A DNA stretch of 64,000 bases from assembly GCA_965235115.1 (NCBI GenBank), contig OZ249436.1, positions 27,406,001 to 27,470,000 of the forward strand. Reading direction: 5' to 3'. The notes beneath the pieces were generated by a model that was not told the origin of the DNA, searched no databases, and saw only the letters and a list, made by a program, of their open reading frames with translations. The stretch is from Laetmonice hystrix. Its lineage: Eukaryota. Each line of letters begins with the position of its first letter. Positions within the stretch are counted from its first letter, which is position 1. Position numbers and translations under genes: made by a program. Positions 47,175-59,530 of the stretch are shown piece after piece.

Positions 47175-48441
47175 GATAACTACCCTAATGTAGATCAACC
47201 AGAACCCCCCCACCCCTTTCCGATAACTACCCTAATATAGATCAACCAGAACCCCCCCCCCGTCCGATAACTACCCTAATATAGATCAACCAGAACCCCC
47301 CCTTTCCGATAACAACCCTACTATAGGTCAACCAGAACCCCCCCCCCCTTTCCGATAACAACCCTACTATAGGTCAACCAGAACCCCCCCCCCCGTCCGA
47401 TAACTACCCTAATATAGATCAACCAGAACCCCCCCCCCCCTTTCCGATAACAACCCTACTATAGGTCAACCAGAACCCCCCCCCCCTTTCCGATAACAAC
47501 CCTACTATAGGTCAACCAGAACCCCCCCTTTCCGATAACAACCCTACTATAGGTCAACCAGAACCCCCCCCCCCTTTCCGATAACAACCCTACTATAGGT
47601 CAACCAGAACCCCCCCCTTTCCGATAACAACCCTACTATAGGTCAACCAGAACCCCCCCCCTTTCCGATAACAACCCTACTATAGGTCAACCAGAACCCC
47701 CCCCCTTTCCGATAACAACCCTACTATAGGTCAACCAGAACCCCCCCCCGTCCGATACCAACCCTACTATAGGTCAACCAGACCCCCCCCTTCCGATAGC
47801 AACCCTACTATAGGTCAACCAGAACCCCCCCCCCTTCCGATAACAACCCTACTATAGGTCAACCAGAACCCCCCCCCTCCGATAACTACCCTAATATAGA
47901 TCAACCAGAACCCCCCCACCCCTTTCCGATAACTACCCTAATATAGATCAACCAGAACCCCCCCCCCCTTCCGATAACAACCCTACTATAGGTCAACCAG
48001 AACCCCCCCCTTTCCGATAACAACCCTACTATAGGTCAACCAGAACCCCCCCCCCCTTCCGATAACAACCCTACTATAGGTCAACCAGAACCCCCCCCCC
48101 CCTTTCCGATAACAACCCTACTATAGGTCAACCAGAACACCCCCCCCCCCTTCCGATAACAACCCTACTATAGGTCAACCAGAACCCCCCTTCCGATAAC
48201 AACCCTACTATAGGTCAACCAGAACCCCCCCTTCCGATAACAACCCTACTATAGGTCAACCAGAACCCCCCCCCCCCGTCCGATAACAACCCTACTATAG
48301 GTCAACCAGAACCCCCCCCCCCCCCCGTCCGATAACAACCCTACTATAGGTCAACCAGAACCCCCCCCCCCCCCCTTCCGATAACAACCCTACTATAGGT
48401 CAACCAGACCCCCCCCTTCCGATAACAACCCTACTATAGGT
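47175..48441. repeat. Poly-C minisatellite (~44-52-bp unit, ~27 copies), left part of the array interrupted by the LINE
   Basis: Constant ccgataacaaccctactataggtcaaccagaa followed by a variable Cn and tt(t)/gt. A minor variant reads gataactaccctaatatagatcaacc. Confidence 0.97.
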
Positions 48442-48513
48442 TTTTTTTTACATCTTTTATTTATCCTGGATAAATACAGAATCGGCTGACAGCCGTTTTT
48501 CGCTGCACTCCAG
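48441..48513 (-). other. LINE 3' end: predicted stem-loop, AATAAA signal and 8-9 nt poly(A)
   Basis: The minus strand reads CTGGA-GTGCAG-cgaaaaa-CGGCT-gtc-AGCCG-att-CTGTAT-tta-TCCAG-gataAATAAAagatgt-A9. This gives three nested pairings, the middle one with G:U pairs. Confidence 0.7.
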
Positions 48514-48780
48514 TTAACACAATAAACAATCATCCTTTCTGGTTTTCGTGAAGTGAAAGACTAAACAAATAAGGTGTGGGTTTAAGTACAGCTTAAGTAA
48601 AGGTTAGTAACAGCGATACGAAAAAGATAGTATATTTAATAAATGATATGTCGTATGATTCTCGTAAGCTCAGTGAATGGATATATTCCGTATAACAGGA
48701 TTACCTTGTATATATGTATATATGCTACAGAAGAAATAGAAATCCAACATATCCAATACATAGGGATGTTTAAAGAAGTA

Positions 48781-49812
48781 TTAACCCCTATCGGTCACTA
48801 TTGTTGATTTCAACCACCTTTTCTGTAAGCATTTAAAGTGATCTAGCGATTCTAAATTTCTTAAATATGGCTCCAGGCTATTCCACTCTCTGGCACCTTT
48901 CCATGCAATGCTTCTCTCTACACTAGAAAAGTTTGCTCTAAATGTGCTCATAGTAATTCCATCATATAGTCGTGTTCTCCCGGGCATATTAACTAGATAT
49001 CTCTGTTCTCTGCTACGCTTAAACATAAAATTCCTAAGATGCACTGTTCTTCTGTATTTAAGTAAGGGTAGTTGGGATCGTTGAATAAGTTCTGCTCGAG
49101 GTGTCCTATATGTAGTCCCAAGGCAAACTCTGAGTGCACGATATTGTAGCTTATCCAACTTATCCAAAACCTCATTTGTTGAACTCATGTAGAAAATATC
49201 TCCATAATCAATGTATGGTAGAATTTTGGTTTTATAAATGCAAAACGCCACCTTATCTGTAATGTAAGAGCGAATCTTTTGAAGGACATAGATCTTGTGG
49301 GAGGCTAGTTTAAATATATTTTTAGCGTGAAGACTAAAATTCAGTTTATTATCCAAGATTACTCCCAAATATTTAAATTTCTCAACAAAATGGATTAAGT
49401 CCCCGTTTAAAGTTACCTTAGGTAGCTCTGGTGTATTTAGAAATTTTTTACTGCCAAATAACATACATTTAGTTTTTGAAGTGTTAATCGTGAGTTGATT
49501 TTTCTTACACCAAACATTGACAATATTTAAGTCATGCTGGAGTTTTCTATGGGCCTCGTTAATTGAATCTGCACTAGTACATAATGCCCCGTCATCAGCA
49601 AACAAACGAATGTTGCAGTAGGTAAGTCTGTTTCCTATATCGTTTATGTATATCAAAAAGAAAAGTGGTCCTAGAATTGACCCCTGGGGTACACCACAGA
49701 CTATGGGAAGCTTATTTGACACTGCGCCATTGGCCACAACATATTGCTTTCTATTGGTAAGACAGCTTTTAATCCACATTAGTGTTATACCTGAAAGCCC
49801 TACTTTCTCCAT
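48781..49812 (-). pseudogene. LINE ORF2, 3' part: reverse transcriptase core and C-terminal region, in a different frame from the 5' part
   Basis: WIKSCLTNRKQYV, GVPQGSILGPLFFLIYIND, catalytic FADD, WCKKNQLTINTSKTK, FKYLGVILDNKLNF, ILPYIDYG and LQYRALR are typical of CR1/L2-type RT and its C-terminus. Confidence 0.92.
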
Positions 49813-51628
49813 TTCTCCAAGCCTTTTTTAGGTCCACGAATGCCGCCATTGTACAACACGATTCATTCCACTTCATAAAGATTTCATCTGTTAATTTGGC
49901 TACCGCATTGAGTGTGGAACGCCCTGCTCTGAAACCATCCTGATTATCGTTGAGTATATTGTGTATATCAAAAAAGGCCACGATTCTTGACTGAACGATC
50001 TTCTCTAAAAGTTTGCCAGGAAGTGGCAGTAAAGAAATCGGTCTATAGTTACCCACATCAGTATTCTCCCCACCTTTAAAAAGTGGAACAATTTTAGCAA
50101 TTTTCCATGAGTCTGGGAAGATACCTTTAGAGAGTGAGATATTCATCAATCTCGTAATTACTGATGGTATTGCCAAAAAGGCATCCTTGAGGATGCGGGA
50201 AGACAGGTAATCGATAGAAGAAGCTTTGTAAATATTGATATCTTTACATAATTTCATAATCTCGTCTGCATTGGTTTGTATATCCATAATTTTCGATTCT
50301 ACTTCCTCACCGTCAAAGTCCCAATCCTCATTGAACTGCCTTGCTAACACAGGCCCTATGGCAGTAAAATATTCGTTAATAAAATTAGCCGTTTTAGATT
50401 GGTCAATCATATCTCCCGTTTCCTTATTCACTAGATTTATTATACCCTTAGTATTCGTTTTCGGTAGTAGTGTATTTATACAGTCCCAGAATTTCTTAGC
50501 ATCCCCTTCTTTTTCATTTAGCTTTTCTTTAACAAAGTCAGATTTGGCTTTTTTCAAAGCATTCCTTGTGTGGTTTTTCAGTATTCTCGCTCGGTTCCAA
50601 TCTTCCACAGTGTTTGACCGCTTAGCTTTTTTTCTAGCATTTTCTTTGTCATGTATCAGTTCAATGAGTTCTTTTGTCATCCAAGCATCCCCACGGTCTT
50701 TAATTACCATCTTTTTTAGTGGACACATTGAATTGATGCAATCATAGATATTTGTGAGGATCTTATCCCAGTATGCATCAACATTTTCTTCGTTATCGAG
50801 CTCAGCCCAGTTGTACTGTCTTAGTCTCTGTTGAAAAGTTTCATTGTCATAATTAATGTAAGATCTGCCAAAAGTCGTAATTTTGATGAACGTTTCTTTA
50901 CCCTTCTTTCTGGTAACAAAAATAGCTTCATGATCGCTTACTGCTATATTCAGAGTTCGAGAAGTCTTTATGTAGTCTGAGTTCGTAAGGATTAAATCTA
51001 TGCAGCTATTATTTTTAGAGTATCTTGTAACTGCGTTAATTAATTGCTTGAGACCCGTTAGCGCTTCGAGATCCTTCAAGTATTTTCTATTTAAACATTT
51101 CACATCAGAGTAGTCTATATTATAATCTCCAATTATAAATATATCACTTCGGCTTGCATTCGGTAAGCTGTTGATTTTATCAGTTAAAATCTCACAGAAA
51201 GATTTGGCATTTGATTGGGGCGGGCGATACAATACTCCAACAATAATTTTCCTCATATTAGGTATTTTAACCATTAACCACATAAGCTCAATAGCGTCAT
51301 TGCTTACATTTAAATTTTCCAGTTCAGTGGATGAATAGATTAGTTTGTTACTGATATAGGCAGCAACACCTCCCCCTTTTTTCTTGATCCCTGTTCCACT
51401 TACAGTCCAGTTGCGATCAAGTCTAATAATATCGTATCCTTCTAAATTTAATAACTGGTCTGAATGATTAGATGTTAGCCAAGTCTCTGAGAGGGAGAAA
51501 ATATCAAATTTTGAGTCCTTAACATAATACTTAACTAAGTCGAGCTTATTTGATATACTTTGGCAGTTCACATGACAAATATGAAACCCCCTATGTGATG
51601 TTGGATAGCGACAATCTTCATCCTGCAT
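49769..51628 (-). pseudogene. LINE ORF2, 5' part: apurinic-like endonuclease, linker and start of the reverse transcriptase; leaves frame after VDLKKA
   Basis: APE motifs HVNCQS, SETWL, LYRPP, GDYN, IDLIL, SDH. Pre-RT and RT motifs WKIAKIVPLFKG, NYRPISLLPLPGKLLEKIV, QDGFRAGRST, AFVDLKKA. Homology is lost straight after LKKA (~49820). Confidence 0.92.
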
Positions 51629-51966
51629 TATCTAAGTTATACAACTCTATCATAACCAGTCTGAGTTTTGAGACAATAATTATAGTAACGTAATTAGCGA
51701 CTACTTTCGTATCCAAATAACTTATATACAAGGTGCATTCCCCCGTTATCCATAGGTGTATGTGCAGAGACTGCATCCTATGGATTGAATAATTAAATAG
51801 GAGAAGAAAAAGATTTGCTGTGAGGGTTCAGCGGCATACAGTTAGCAAACTACTGTCCGGTATATTCAGGCTAGTAACCAGTCCACTCTGCCTGTTTAAA
51901 GATTAAAGTTACAAATAGTGACTGAAAAGATCCAATCTCACAGTTTCGGTGAACAGCAGACAGTTC

Positions 51967-53226
51967 CTAGCTAGTGCCATCACGTAGCGCTGAAAGTAGT
52001 TTCCCCAAGGTATTTGTTCCTTTGTAGCTACTAGTCTTGAGCAGAGGAGAGGTAATGGAGCACCCAGCTCCCCAATAGGAGTCCGCGGTGGCCTCAACAA
52101 GGTCAAATCCAGCTGTTGCAAGCAGAGCCTCTCGCAGGGCGGGATGCGAGTTGAACTTTGCCATGAGTGCAGTTTGCATTGTGGGTTCCCGGCGATTAAT
52201 CCATGAGGAGCCCTGCTTTATCTTCACTTTATCCCCGAGTTTTTTTATCCTGGCTGGATCGGTGGATTTCATAATGGCGTCTGCGATTTCATCATTACCT
52301 TCATTTAGTGCTTTCAAGTGCTGAAAGGCTTGCTCAACACATAGGTAGGAGTTTCCATTGACAACAATTTCACCCGGGTAAAAGTTGGATAGAGGAGAAT
52401 AGCGCGATGCAAAAGCGATTTCTTTATCATTAACCTTCAGAGTCTTTGCAGAACTGAGTGACAACCTTTCTGGGAGATGATGAAGAGAATTGTAGGAGTA
52501 GCGCTTGCCGTCCACCGTGCAGTGATCAGATTGAGCCTTGGCCTCGATTCCCTTGCTTTTGGCAAAGTTCACCACTGACCTGATCGCTCCCCTCCTTTCC
52601 TTGATTTGGCTCGGTAGATCCTCGTTTATCCAGATCGTGGGGAGACGTCCCTTAAGTTTTGTCCGGGCCATGAACACAGCGTCGCGATCCAGATGGCGGG
52701 GAAAACGAACGAGTATAGAGCGATGGAGTCCTTTGTGAGGTTTGCCTATTCTATGTATTTTGTCTAGGTCTTTGTCGCCTAGGCCAATTCCCAGTTCTTT
52801 GTTAATTAGGTTAAGGATTATGTTGCGCACGTTTTCAGTTTCAGTTTCAGGAACATTGTCAATAAGGAGGTTATGACGACGGCTGTACAACTCCAGTTGA
52901 GTAAAGTCTTCTCTCAACAATGCCAATTCAGCTTCAAAACATGCTGATTTCCTTTTTTCCTTTTCCAGCTCGGTTTTCAAGGAGGTTATATCTTCAACTG
53001 TAGAGCTGTAGCTGGAGTTTAATTTATCAAGTTTATCCGTGACAGATTTAAGTTCATGTTTAACTTCGAGAGAAGAGCTAAGGAGGATGTCAATTTTCTC
53101 TTCCAGAGATGTTGATGCGCCAGTAGGGTTAGTGTTCAGCAGTACCTGTGTATCATTATCGCTGATCACAGAAGAGTTGGTGGATGGAGTGGTTCTCGTA
53201 GACATTCTTCCTCTGCTGTATGCCAT
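51967..53226 (-). CDS. LINE ORF1 protein (419 aa): coiled coil + L1-type RRM + CTD fused to a C-terminal NADAR (YbiA/DUF1768) domain
   Basis: aa ~40-113 are a heptad-rich coil (LEEKIDILL…LKTELEKEKRK…LALLREDFTQLE). aa ~113-205 carry ORF1p RRM hallmarks (YSRRHNLLIDNVPE, IHRIG, RSILVRF, IWINEDL). aa ~205-250 are CTD-like (CTVDGKRY). aa 270-416 carry NADAR motifs in order: LSNFY, VEQAFQHLKA, IKKLG, W…M…AKF, LREALLAT, LVE…DSYWG, GTNTLGKLLSALR. The frame is uninterrupted. Confidence 0.92.
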   Translation of the reverse strand: MAYSRGRMSTRTTPSTNSSVISDNDTQVLLNTNPTGASTSLEEKIDILLSSSLEVKHELKSVTDKLDKLNSSYSSTVEDITSLKTELEKEKRKSACFEAELALLREDFTQLELYSRRHNLLIDNVPETETENVRNIILNLINKELGIGLGDKDLDKIHRIGKPHKGLHRSILVRFPRHLDRDAVFMARTKLKGRLPTIWINEDLPSQIKERRGAIRSVVNFAKSKGIEAKAQSDHCTVDGKRYSYNSLHHLPERLSLSSAKTLKVNDKEIAFASRYSPLSNFYPGEIVVNGNSYLCVEQAFQHLKALNEGNDEIADAIMKSTDPARIKKLGDKVKIKQGSSWINRREPTMQTALMAKFNSHPALREALLATAGFDLVEATADSYWGAGCSITSPLLKTSSYKGTNTLGKLLSALRDGTS

Positions 53227-53397
53227 GCTTACAAGTGTATCACCAGTTGACGTGTGTATCTTGGGGTGCTATAAATACACATGAAACCTCCGCTGCCGGT
53301 GTGACCCATTCAATCAAGTGTGACTGGTTCAGGTATGGTGTGTTGCCCCATGGCCGCCCAGATCCAAGTCAAGGTAATAGCACCTACCAAAAAGTAA

Positions 53398-53705
53398 CAA
53401 CCAGAACCCCCCCCCCCTCCCTTCCGATAACAACCCTACTATAGGTCAACCAGAACCCCCCTTCCGATAACAACCCTACTATAGGTCAACCAGAACCCCC
53501 CCCCCTTCCGATAACAACCCTACTATAGGTCAACCAGAACCCCCCCCCCCCTTCCGATAACAACCCTACTATAGGTCAACCAGAACCCCCCCCCCCCTTC
53601 CGATAACAACCCTACTATAGGTCAACCAGAACCCAACCCCCCCTCCCTTCCGATAACAACCCTACAATATATTAGGTCAACGAGACCCCCCCCCCCCCCA
53701 TTCCG
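53398..53705. repeat. Same poly-C minisatellite, right part (~6 copies)
   Basis: Resumes at caaccagaacccc, exactly where the left part stopped (…ctataggt). Confidence 0.96.
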
Positions 53706-56826: not shown

Positions 56827-58434
56827 GGTTAATGGATAGGCTGAGAGTTTGTAAGACATGAACAGCTGTCTGATGTGTGTGTGTGGAATGTTCTCCATAC
56901 AGAGAGACTGTTGATCCCCCTGGCTCTTCCCCTCAAACTTGCTATTAAAACCGCCTGATATGAAATGTAAAATCATCACACAGGTTTCCGGTTGAAAAGC
57001 TCCCATGTTTGCAAGACTGCGGCCCGCTTAAACACACACCAAAATAGAAGTCAAAGGAGATAATTGAAAGAAAAAGAAAAAAAAGAAATGGGCGCTGTGG
57101 GATGAATAAGAGAAGAAGCGTTTGAAATCCTCAAGCAGCGCTTTAGAGGAGGAACCTTTTTCTTGAATGATGAGCGGAGTGGCAAATGTTGAATGGTTAG
57201 GCACTGAATAGAAGGGACGTCCTCATCCAGGCAACGAACCACTTTGGTTGTCAGACATCGTGGGAAACGACGGCCACGCTGTGTGGGTGTGTGTGTAGAC
57301 AGTGCAGGCAGCGGCAGCTGCGGCTCACATTCGGATTTATTTTAACTACTCCATCATATTGCAAATTCATCCGACGAGTCGGCCTAGAGAGCCGATTGAA
57401 ATGCCATCAGAAGAAAAAACCAAGTGCTGTAATGTCACTAATAATCTAAGTGCATCACAAATGTCTGCCGTGTTTCATACGGAGATTATTTAATTAATGT
57501 TTAAATGGAAGTAATGAAAGAGAGGGTTTTTGTCGGTCGTTGAAACGGACTGTCTTTGCATTTCAAATGAAAGAGTGGGATAGTGTATACATATATGCAT
57601 GAGGTACGAAATCTTCGGGGGCGAATTTTATTCTTTTTTCTTTTTTGTAGTTATCTTAATTGCAAGTAGGTCACGAGTGTTGAACACCGTTCCTTTGGTG
57701 TCTCGACGCAACACTGGGGGCATGGCCTCCAGGGCATTCAGTCAGTGCAGCATCATTCCCTCCACGACCGTTAGCTGTAGGAGCAGGAAGAGCACAAGGA
57801 TCGTCCTCACAAACGATGCGAGTTATTCCAGGCCGTAATTGTGTGGATAAATGAGGGGACAAATCTGGGATGGCCCACATTTACCAGCGGCAAAATTACA
57901 TCTCCCCCCCCCCTCCACATCCTCCTTCTGTTCGTCGCCTTCCTCTTTTTCCTCTCCTCCTCCGCCTGCAAAAGGCGAATGAGACTATGCTTCTGGGAAA
58001 TGAGGGTAATTTGCATGAATAACACATGACCAAATTTAATGGTACTTTCGTTAAATTGGAGCAGCAGAAAATGAAAGTCGGCTTTCAAGGGTTGCATCTG
58101 CTTGACAAAATATTGTTCTGGCATCTGACCTCGCAATTGCGGACAAATAGGCTTCCGTGAGTCACGTTATTCAGCTTTGGGATTGATGACACCGACAGCA
58201 AGCTATGAGTAGAGTATAATTAGTGTTGAGATAATAGCGTTACGCCACTCACACTGAGGTTCCATTGTGTTAGGCTGGTCACAGATTACTCCGTCGTAAT
58301 TCCCTGATGTGGACCGTCAGGCCCACCCAGGCTGATCACAAGTATTTCTCACGTCAGGCTCAGATCTTGGTGACTTGCTACATTATACATGGCACTGTGC
58401 ATCGAGATACAAACCACCAAGGCAATGAACCCGT

Positions 58435-59530
58435 CCTTCTGTACCAAACACCATGGCAAGTTGTCCCCCTTCTGTAGCAAACACCATGGCAAGGTGTCCC
58501 CCTTCTGTACCAAACACCATGGCAAGGTGTCCCCCTTCTGTAGCAAACACCATGGCAAGGTGCCCCCCTTCTGTACCAAATACCATGGCAAGCTGTCCCC
58601 CTTCTGTAGCAAACATCATGGCAAGGTGTCCCCCCTTCTGTACCAAACACCATGGCAAGGTGTTCCCCTTCTGTACCAAACACCATGGCAAGGTGTCCCC
58701 TTCTGTACCAAACACCATGGCAAGGTGTTCCCCTTCTGTACCAAACACCATGGCAAGGTGTCCCCTTCTGTACCAAACACCATGGCAAGGTGTCCCCCTT
58801 CTGTACCAGATACCATGGCAAGGTGTCCCTTTCTGTACCAAACACCATGGCAAGGTGTCCCCCTTCTGTACCAGATACCATGGCAAGGTGTCCCTTTCTG
58901 TATCAAACACCATGGCAAGGTGTCCCCCCTTCTGTACCAAACACCATGGCAAGGTGCCCCCCTTGTACCAAACACCATGGCAAGCTGTTCCCCTTCTGTA
59001 TCAAACACCATGGCAATGTGTCCCCTTCTGTACCAAACACCATGCAAGGTGTCCCCCTTCTGTAACAAACACCATGGCAAGGTGTTCCCCTTCTCTACCA
59101 AACACAAAGGAAAGGTGGTCCCCTTTTCTACCAAACACCATGGCAAGGTGTTCCCCTTCTGTACCAGATACCATGGCAAGGTGTCCCCCCTTCTGTACCA
59201 AACACCATGGCAAGGTGTCCCCCTTCTGTACCAAACCCCATGGCAAGCTGTTCCCCTTCTCTACCAAACACAAAGGCAAGGTGGTCCCCTTTTACACCGA
59301 ACACCAAGGCAAGCTGCCCCGTTCTGAAGGCAAGGTGTCCCCCGTCAGGGCCAGATCCAGGATTCACACTGTGGTTATTTGAGGACGTACATTTGACAAC
59401 TTTTGTTTCTTCTTTCCTTTTTGGGGGCTATTTCTAAGGGGGGTTGCAACCCCTAGACGTCCCCCCTCGGATCCGGCTTTGTCCCTTCTGTACCAAACAC
59501 CATTGCAAGGCGCTCTCCTTTTCTACCGTG
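58435..59530. repeat. Minisatellite, ~33-bp unit x ~27, the last unit(s) separated by a short insertion
   Basis: Unit ccttctgtaccaaacaccatggcaaggtgtccc. It accounts for all ORFs 58349-59437. Confidence 0.96.
59346..59481. mobile_element. Small MITE-like insertion with imperfect terminal inverted repeats
   Basis: Ends cagggccagatcc and ggatccggctttg are reverse complements at 10 of 13 positions. Internal ggggttgcaacccc palindrome. It interrupts the 33-bp minisatellite. Confidence 0.55.

Follow-up and report, generated by a model that had tools for sequence, protein, structure and literature searches.

A NADAR domain joined to the predicted L1-type ORF1 protein of CR1-type LINEs in Laetmonice hystrix

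Does a LINE in the genome of Laetmonice hystrix encode an RNA-binding protein that also carries an enzyme, and if it does, what keeps the enzyme there? The question arises from a 64,000-nt stretch of contig OZ249436.1 (GenBank assembly GCA_965235115.1, positions 27,406,001 to 27,470,000 of the forward strand), referred to below as the window; unless stated otherwise, coordinates are those of the window. An initial annotation, made from the sequence alone, had described a single 419-aa frame at the ORF1 position of a LINE, with an L1-type ORF1p layout in aa 1–250 and a complete NADAR domain in aa 270–416. The frame was found at 53226–51967 on the minus strand with all the motifs quoted in that annotation. 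Its parts are as follows.

51967..53226, minus strand: ORF1, 419 aa, consisting of a disordered N-terminus, coiled coil, RRM, CTD and NADAR (basis: frame, Pfam, AlphaFold2, Foldseek and structure alignment)
52882..53106, minus strand: coiled-coil helix, aa 41–115, unbroken in the AlphaFold2 model and aligned to the L1ORF1p trimer from aa 72
52615..52881, minus strand: L1-type RRM, aa 116–204 (2W7A, Z 10.9 on model residues 116–203)
52447..52614, minus strand: L1-type CTD, aa 205–260 (the 2YKO alignment reaches aa 263, that of 2LDY aa 256)
51979..52425, minus strand: NADAR domain of the YbiA family, aa 268–416 (PF08719, E 9.9e-29; 8BAU, Z 19.7)

In the Pfam profile search of ORF1, the PF08719 (NADAR) match covered aa 275–416 and scored 101.1 bits against the gathering cut-off of 35.1. 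The nearest PDB sequences were 8BAU (E 8.6e-13) and YbiA, 2B3W (E 9.5e-11). A model of the protein was built with AlphaFold2 from a 14-row alignment (mean pLDDT 87.5, pTM 0.69). It places a disordered segment (aa 1–38) before the long helix (41–115), which is followed by the RRM, the CTD and NADAR. When the model was submitted to Foldseek, 8BAU and 2B3W occupied ranks 1–2, and the human L1ORF1p trimer occupied ranks 3–10 (E 3e-8). Structure alignment with VIA-align matched model residues 258–419 to 8BAU (rmsd 2.3, 159 residues aligned) and the same fold to Escherichia coli YbiA 2B3W (Z 16.5), and model residues 72–263 to L1ORF1p 2YKO (Z 10.7, rmsd 3.3, 185 residues aligned); in the model, aa 41–260 form the region that folds like L1ORF1p. 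Transposase_22 (PF02994) was not reported by the Pfam search of ORF1, and hence the L1-type assignment rests on the fold. Both halves of the proposed layout were thus recovered, the first by fold and the second by the profile and structure searches which the annotation had suggested. The Pfam NADAR match and the model matches to 8BAU and L1ORF1p indicate that the protein, as modelled, is a Type II (L1-type) ORF1p with a complete NADAR domain directly after the CTD. Such a protein would be expected to form a homotrimer and to bind RNA.

ORF1 belongs to a LINE copy that is complete in length, inserted in a minisatellite.

48441..53398, minus strand: full-length LINE copy of about 4.96 kb, CR1-group type, sharing its 5’ end with the copy L002 and its 3’ end and poly-A with the copy L031
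53227..53398, minus strand: 5’ UTR of about 170 nt, matching the L002 5’ end at 98% identity up to 53398
49769..51631, minus strand: first frame of ORF2, with the APE endonuclease and the start of the RT (frames and Pfam)
48781..49827, minus strand: second frame of ORF2, with the remaining RT and a C-terminus without a CCHC knuckle (frames and Pfam)
49810..49818, minus strand: position of the 29-bp deletion behind the ORF2 frameshift of the window copy (alignment with L031)
48441..48780, minus strand: 3’ UTR, terminated by AATAAA and a short poly-A tail (sequence and comparison with L031)
47175..48441, no strand: 46-bp minisatellite, 3’ flank of the insertion (repeat analysis)
53398..53698, no strand: the same 46-bp minisatellite, 5’ flank of the LINE (repeat analysis)

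The spacer between ORF1 and ORF2 is about 340 nt. The insertion splits one unit of the minisatellite, and no target-site duplication is evident around it. Since the 29-bp deletion relative to L031 frameshifts ORF2, the window copy is dead; the longer form of ORF2, without the deletion, is present in sequencing contigs of all four runs, which come from one sample. One contig from these runs (52210–53395) bridges the CTD–NADAR junction, and in the same four runs contig depth climbs toward the 3’ end of the LINE. The close family of the element, with copies 93–99% identical and mostly 5’-truncated, appears to be young and small. The features of an APE-type LINE are present, namely APE and RT downstream of ORF1, a 3’ tail and 5’-truncated copies. 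L002 (G000:C1:1065711-1069901) is a sister copy 98–99% identical to the window LINE; its ORF1 is interrupted toward the 5’ end by roughly 800 bp of inserted sequence, and its similarity to the window LINE stops just past ORF1. Minisatellites with units of 24–76 bp are numerous in the window (4939–63740), and the long frames at 58374–59437, which a 33-bp repeat gives rise to, are unlikely to be genes.

The type of the LINE was judged from ORF2. The best similarity of the window-family ORF2 to human L1 ORF2p had an E-value of 2e-17, compared with 2.5e-106 for an L1/Tx1-type control from the same genome (L044), and the C-terminal CCHC knuckle of the control is missing from the window ORF2. The window RT is 41–44% identical to five other non-L1 RTs and 27% identical to that of the L1/Tx1-type element. 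Weak similarity to L1 ORF2p and the missing CCHC rule out the L1/Tx1 group. RT motifs place the window LINE provisionally in the CR1 group (CR1, L2, Crack, Daphne, Kiri), and we leave its clade at the group level. The original description of a CR1/L2-like LINE agrees with this.

Whether the fusion is a single accident was examined in the whole genome (627 Mb, 35 contigs). The ORF1 search yielded 916 candidates, and in 96 of the best 100 scored the RNA-binding part and NADAR lay within one match, so the one-off chimera which the annotation had named as a possible refutation does not describe this fusion. No stop was found in 83 of 101 rows of scored ORF1 matches, a share that is biased upward because only the best-scoring candidates were scored. 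A Pfam NADAR search of the genome gave 741 candidates, and all 150 that were scored exceeded the cut-off. APE starts at most 1.5 kb downstream of ORF1-NADAR in 25 of 30 fetched loci, the window’s own included. The ORF1-NADAR loci form 14 families with 33–65% identity; ORF2 of five other families was open in one frame (980–1017 aa) in three and split by a frameshift in two. Complete or almost complete readings of ORF2 cover the window and seven further loci.

The reverse search, with RRM-CTD, left about 30 of 150 matches without an adjacent NADAR row (matched by eye). Nine apparently NADAR-less ORF1s were inspected: seven have a frameshifted or broken NADAR, one (L053) is a deletion or chimera, and one (L038) has no NADAR match in a decayed ORF1. 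No intact NADAR-less ORF1 was found among these nine of the roughly 30 candidates. L053 (G000:C8:8807000-8811000) is an internal deletion or chimera in which the coil-RRM-CTD part of ORF1 is joined straight to an L1/Tx1-type RT in one 1049-aa frame, without NADAR and APE.

The same layout is frequent in public sequences. In a protein library clustered at 50% identity, RRM/CTD-NADAR was found in 141 of the best 150 matches; the remaining nine comprise one protein of this layout with a split RRM match and eight multi-NADAR proteins. Mean identity across the 141 public fusions is about 35%. Atlas clusters with a match have 64, 53 and 124 members, the last two with annelid records (1 and 3 annotated members). 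The fusion is therefore old, common and family-wide. The eight multi-NADAR proteins (P0046, P0047, P0049, P0050, P0068, P0079, P0118 and P0176) reach 4240 aa in length and carry 2–7 NADAR domains in tandem, beside which Pfam shows nothing convincing.

Selection on the domain was estimated from 91 between-family pairs of the 14 families. Between families, pS of NADAR equals 0.78 versus pN of 0.40, and amino-acid identity in NADAR, RRM, CTD and coil is 44.5%, 43.7%, 41.9% and 24.6%, respectively (91 pairs). In two of the six pairs shown, omega of NADAR was 0.11 and 0.16; most between-family pairs are saturated at synonymous sites. With this saturation, NADAR is held by purifying selection and is as conserved as the RRM, and the neutral evolution named in the annotation as the other way to refute it does not agree with these values. 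Within families, pN/pS was 0.60 for NADAR and 0.79 for the RRM, computed from few and non-independent differences; the value of 0.60 fits copies decaying after insertion, as expected.

NADAR and the RNA-binding part have also been inherited together. The spacing between Y243 and N281 across the CTD–NADAR junction is 37–38 residues in 125 of 141 public fusions. Distances in NADAR and in RRM-CTD are correlated among 70 fusion proteins (Mantel rho 0.55, a value that none of 999 permutations reached). Of 13 strong splits in the NADAR tree, 11 are also present in the tree of RRM-CTD, and the two trees show no strong disagreement. The agreement of trees and distances is evidence of co-descent only, not of co-adaptation, because kinship alone yields such agreement. 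A quick NADAR tree of 93 rows lacks resolution at depth, is compatible with single as well as multiple capture and singles out no donor. Short stand-alone NADAR relatives were represented by one match among 45 candidates.

In order to compare the active site with a characterised one, residues of 8BAU were mapped onto ORF1 by sequence and structure alignment with a two-residue numbering offset, and their roles were taken from PMC11543638. The equivalents are E43=E298, K50=K305, K75=K328, G78=G331, W89=W342, R93=R346, E125=E378, D130=D382 and W133=W385. Three of them matter for mechanism.

52333..52335, minus strand: E298, equivalent to E43 of 8BAU (distal ribose), in 14/14 families and 141/141 public fusions
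52312..52314, minus strand: K305, equivalent to K50 of 8BAU (phosphate coordination), K in 13/14 families and R in one; among 141 public fusions, K in 117 and R in 16
52093..52095, minus strand: E378, equivalent to E125 of 8BAU, the catalytic glutamate of the YbiA family, in 14/14 families and 139/141 public fusions

The annotation had regarded the acidic residues E378 and D382 as an intact catalytic pair. This stands for E378; D382 corresponds to D130, which makes a water-mediated phosphate contact in 8BAU and is not a catalytic residue (PMC11543638), and the other mechanistic positions are E298 and K305. By alignment, the catalytic equivalents E298, K305 and E378 are intact in the window NADAR. 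Six residues, E298, K328, W342, E378, D382 and W385, are invariant in 14/14 families; among public fusions W342 is kept in 140/141 and W385 in 135/141, and the combination of E298, K305, E378, D382 and W385 is complete in only 96/141. The catalytic position in the last strand is Glu in the YbiA family, Asp in DarG1 and His in phage forms, as reported for NADARs. Identification of the domain as a DarTG1 antitoxin (BC4488 family) was rejected, given Glu rather than Asp at 378 and LINE ORF2 rather than darT as the neighbour.

The fold and the nine equivalents listed above are common to the window NADAR, 8BAU (from Phytophthora) and YbiA 2B3W, and the ADP-ribose contacts K75, G78, W89, R93, D130 and W133 of 8BAU are kept. 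The window domain differs from 8BAU in being fused to an RNA chaperone and in three altered ligand contacts, R79 to D332, Y84 to K337 and D86 to G339. The first of these positions is D in 13/14 families. The R93 position is variable among public fusions (A in 59/141). Given the altered contacts and this variation, the substrate may not be ADP-ribose in the way it is bound in 8BAU. A family-wide substrate switch by the change of R79 to D332 was considered and rejected, as the position is variable among public relatives (D in 36, K in 34, N in 17, S in 11 and R in 9 of 141). With the site preserved to this extent, we consider it probable that the domain is an active N-glycosidase.

NADAR is used by several kinds of retroelements in this genome: CR1-type LINEs, an L1/Tx1-type LINE, a Gypsy Pol and a frame of CCHC type. 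The L1/Tx1-type LINE (L043:4204-5625 and L044:705-4475, both on the minus strand, at G000:C18:19.81 Mb) has the same ORF1-NADAR layout and an open ORF2 of 1257 aa with a C-terminal CCHC, the control used above; it accounts for several near-identical NADAR rows of the genome-wide Pfam search. The Gypsy Pol (L037:815-5794, plus strand, G000:C1:23018500-23024500) is a 1660-aa frame with NADAR lying between the protease and the RT; where the window protein has E378, it has His, a feature it shares with phage NADARs. Another NADAR-bearing frame, of 1649 aa, lies at C8:28856722. The CCHC-type frame (L041:2944-5406, minus strand) is 821 aa long and combines zinc-knuckle-like motifs, NADAR and a long low-complexity tail; it resembles the public protein P0014, and no long ORF was found within 5 kb downstream of it. 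RTs paired with the ORF1-NADAR cassette are only 18–27% identical. That one cassette is common to L1/Tx1 and CR1-type ORF2 lineages suggests exchange of ORF1 or a very old origin. In another locus (L042:1980-2675, plus strand) an extra 232-aa frame separates ORF1-NADAR (573 aa) from a CR1-type ORF2; the extra frame has no Pfam match and, judging by its motifs, is presumably SGNH/esterase-like.

NADAR has been described in a LINE ORF1 before, and the present case is not the first, although the annotation had implied novelty. It has been reported in ORF1 of several Tx1 LINE families of Crassostrea gigas from Repbase, with an unclear role (PMC12477816), which was the only paper in our literature search that pairs a NADAR domain with ORF1. 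The oyster ORF1s, compared here by description only, and the window ORF1 both place a YbiA-family NADAR inside ORF1 of a marine-invertebrate LINE. The L1/Tx1-type element L043/L044 is like the oyster elements in type, whereas the window element differs from them by its CR1-group-type ORF2. The account of the oyster elements in PMC12477816 amounts to two sentences and an alignment figure and, in the part available to us, gives no architecture, selection or catalytic analysis of NADAR. The same paper reports NADAR in Pol of lineage IV Gypsy elements of Ectocarpus; these share NADAR in Gypsy Pol with L037 and differ from the window LINE in being LTR elements with the domain in Pol rather than in ORF1p.

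Type II ORF1p (L1-type, Transposase_22), with the coiled coil, RRM and CTD seen in the window ORF1, is known from the CR1 and L2 subgroups, where add-on domains are common (PMC4120745). The add-ons listed there are PHD, CCHC and esterase, whereas the window ORF1 has NADAR; the main text of that paper contains no mention of NADAR, YbiA or DUF1768, and the main text of a 2026 survey of the vertebrate CR1 group (PMC13343379) contains none of NADAR or YbiA. Among the matches listed in the literature search, which lay outside Repbase, Dfam and subscription journals, no paper described NADAR in a CR1-group ORF1. New in the present data are the CR1-group context of the fusion, its scale and the evidence of selection, and NADAR can be added as a domain type in the classification of CR1-group ORF1s. 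Additional sources are PMC13036486 and bioRxiv 10.64898/2026.03.31.715305.

What would a LINE gain from this domain? By analogy with the fold of L1ORF1p, ORF1p would bind the RNA of its own element via the RRM and CTD and oligomerise via the coiled coil, so that each subunit would deliver one NADAR to the RNP, placing it at a constant distance from the surface that binds RNA. All tested NADAR classes remove ADP-ribose from guanine in RNA (PMC11833690); two of them, NADAR and YbiA, act on ADP-ribosylated cytidine as well, and a sponge NADAR is active (PMC12945103). The reading that we favour, tentatively and at somewhat less than even chances, is that the domain is an RNP-borne hydrolase erasing ADP-ribose from guanine N2 or cytidine of the element RNA or nascent cDNA. 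Adducts of this kind could block translation or reverse transcription, and the domain would then act as an anti-defence eraser against a base-modifying host ADP-ribosyltransferase, as the NADARs carried by phages and by RNA viruses of annelids and bivalves may do. Annelid and bivalve RNA viruses carry NADAR largely to the exclusion of Macro (PMC9503650). Viral NADARs (the anti-DarT1 form of T4-like phages; those of picornaviruses and nidoviruses of annelids and bivalves) resemble that of the window in that a selfish element carries them, with ADP-ribosylation by the host as the plausible target. In phage NADARs the catalytic position is occupied by His and the writer, DarT1, is known; the window NADAR has Glu, and its candidate writer is hypothetical.

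Four other roles were weighed against the RNP-borne eraser. NADAR could be a binding or RNA-processing module that recognises ADP-ribose, an RNP factor of the host or a cap-like end and aids RNP assembly or localisation, its catalysis being secondary or absent. The three NADAR domains of SNA-3 of Caenorhabditis elegans, which work in trans-splicing (PMC11125620), the processing of RNA intermediates proposed in PMC12477816 and the altered contacts at R79, Y84 and D86 are consistent with such a module; near-invariance of E298 and E378 in 141 proteins as diverged as these fits catalysis better than scaffolding, and we regard the module as unlikely. Somewhat less likely again is an N-glycosidase acting on a small molecule, either a soluble immune signal derived from ADP-ribose or another ribosyl-N-glycoside, which would damp host signalling rather than repair RNA. 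It has precedents in the riboflavin intermediates that are substrates of YbiA and in the soluble ADPr derivatives proposed as substrates of viral NADARs (PMC9503650), but the short and constant spacing between NADAR and the RNA-binding CTD suggests a bound nucleic acid and would be needless for a diffusible substrate.

A role on proteins, in which NADAR would strip ADP-ribose from ORF1p, ORF2p or host factors in the manner of viral macrodomains, would agree with the largely exclusive distribution of Macro and NADAR in animal RNA viruses (PMC9503650) and with the PARP genes of the host; as the NADAR activities tested in the literature searched are base-specific, with none reported there on protein, we consider it improbable. 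Protection of the element or its host from guanine- or cytidine-modifying toxins of environmental or symbiotic bacteria, rather than from host defence, has been proposed for metazoan NADARs in relation to ScARP-like toxins of actinomycetes (PMC12945103). It appears just as improbable for the window domain, for it poorly explains why virtually every family in several retroelement lineages, which are presumably active in the germ line, has kept the domain. Finally, a one-off chimera, an assembly artefact or a neutral passenger, with nothing in its favour except the dead ORF2 of the window copy, is refuted to the point of being negligible by the 96 of the best 100 genome places, the contig bridging the junction, the residues kept at saturated dS and the 141 of the best 150 public matches.

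An RNP-borne eraser implies a writer. The selected fusion hints at a chemical host defence against transposons that has so far escaped description, and an eraser kept by many transposon families with an intact active site would be indirect evidence for such a system. In its broad form the idea is speculative, and we would sooner bet against it: marine invertebrates would ADP-ribosylate the RNA or cDNA of retroelements at guanine N2 or cytidine, two LINE groups, Gypsy and RNA viruses of the same hosts would have converged on a NADAR eraser, and in this genome an entire radiation of LINE families would depend on it. The literature searched, in the parts available, describes no endogenous enzyme of animals that would write ADP-ribose onto guanine N2 or cytidine of transposons; it has been suggested that such base modification exists undiscovered in eukaryotes (PMC12945103). 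The obvious animal writers do not fit, because the adducts of human PARP10 and PARP15 (G-N1 and U-N3) resist the NADARs tested. NADAR itself offers a practical handle, a domain of 150 residues for assay and a catalytic mutant for substrate trapping.

Candidate writers were sought in the genome with Pfam profiles. The Scabin-like and DarT profiles had no genome match; both controls were also silent and introns split genes, so that this does not imply absence. The Macro profile gave five matches of nine candidates and the PARP profile 14 exon matches of 29 candidates, the latter a lower bound, with no obvious expansion of either. One PARP catalytic-domain match (G000:C30:6804555-6804986, minus strand) lies in a single unbroken frame of 222 aa, the other PARP matches being split into exons.
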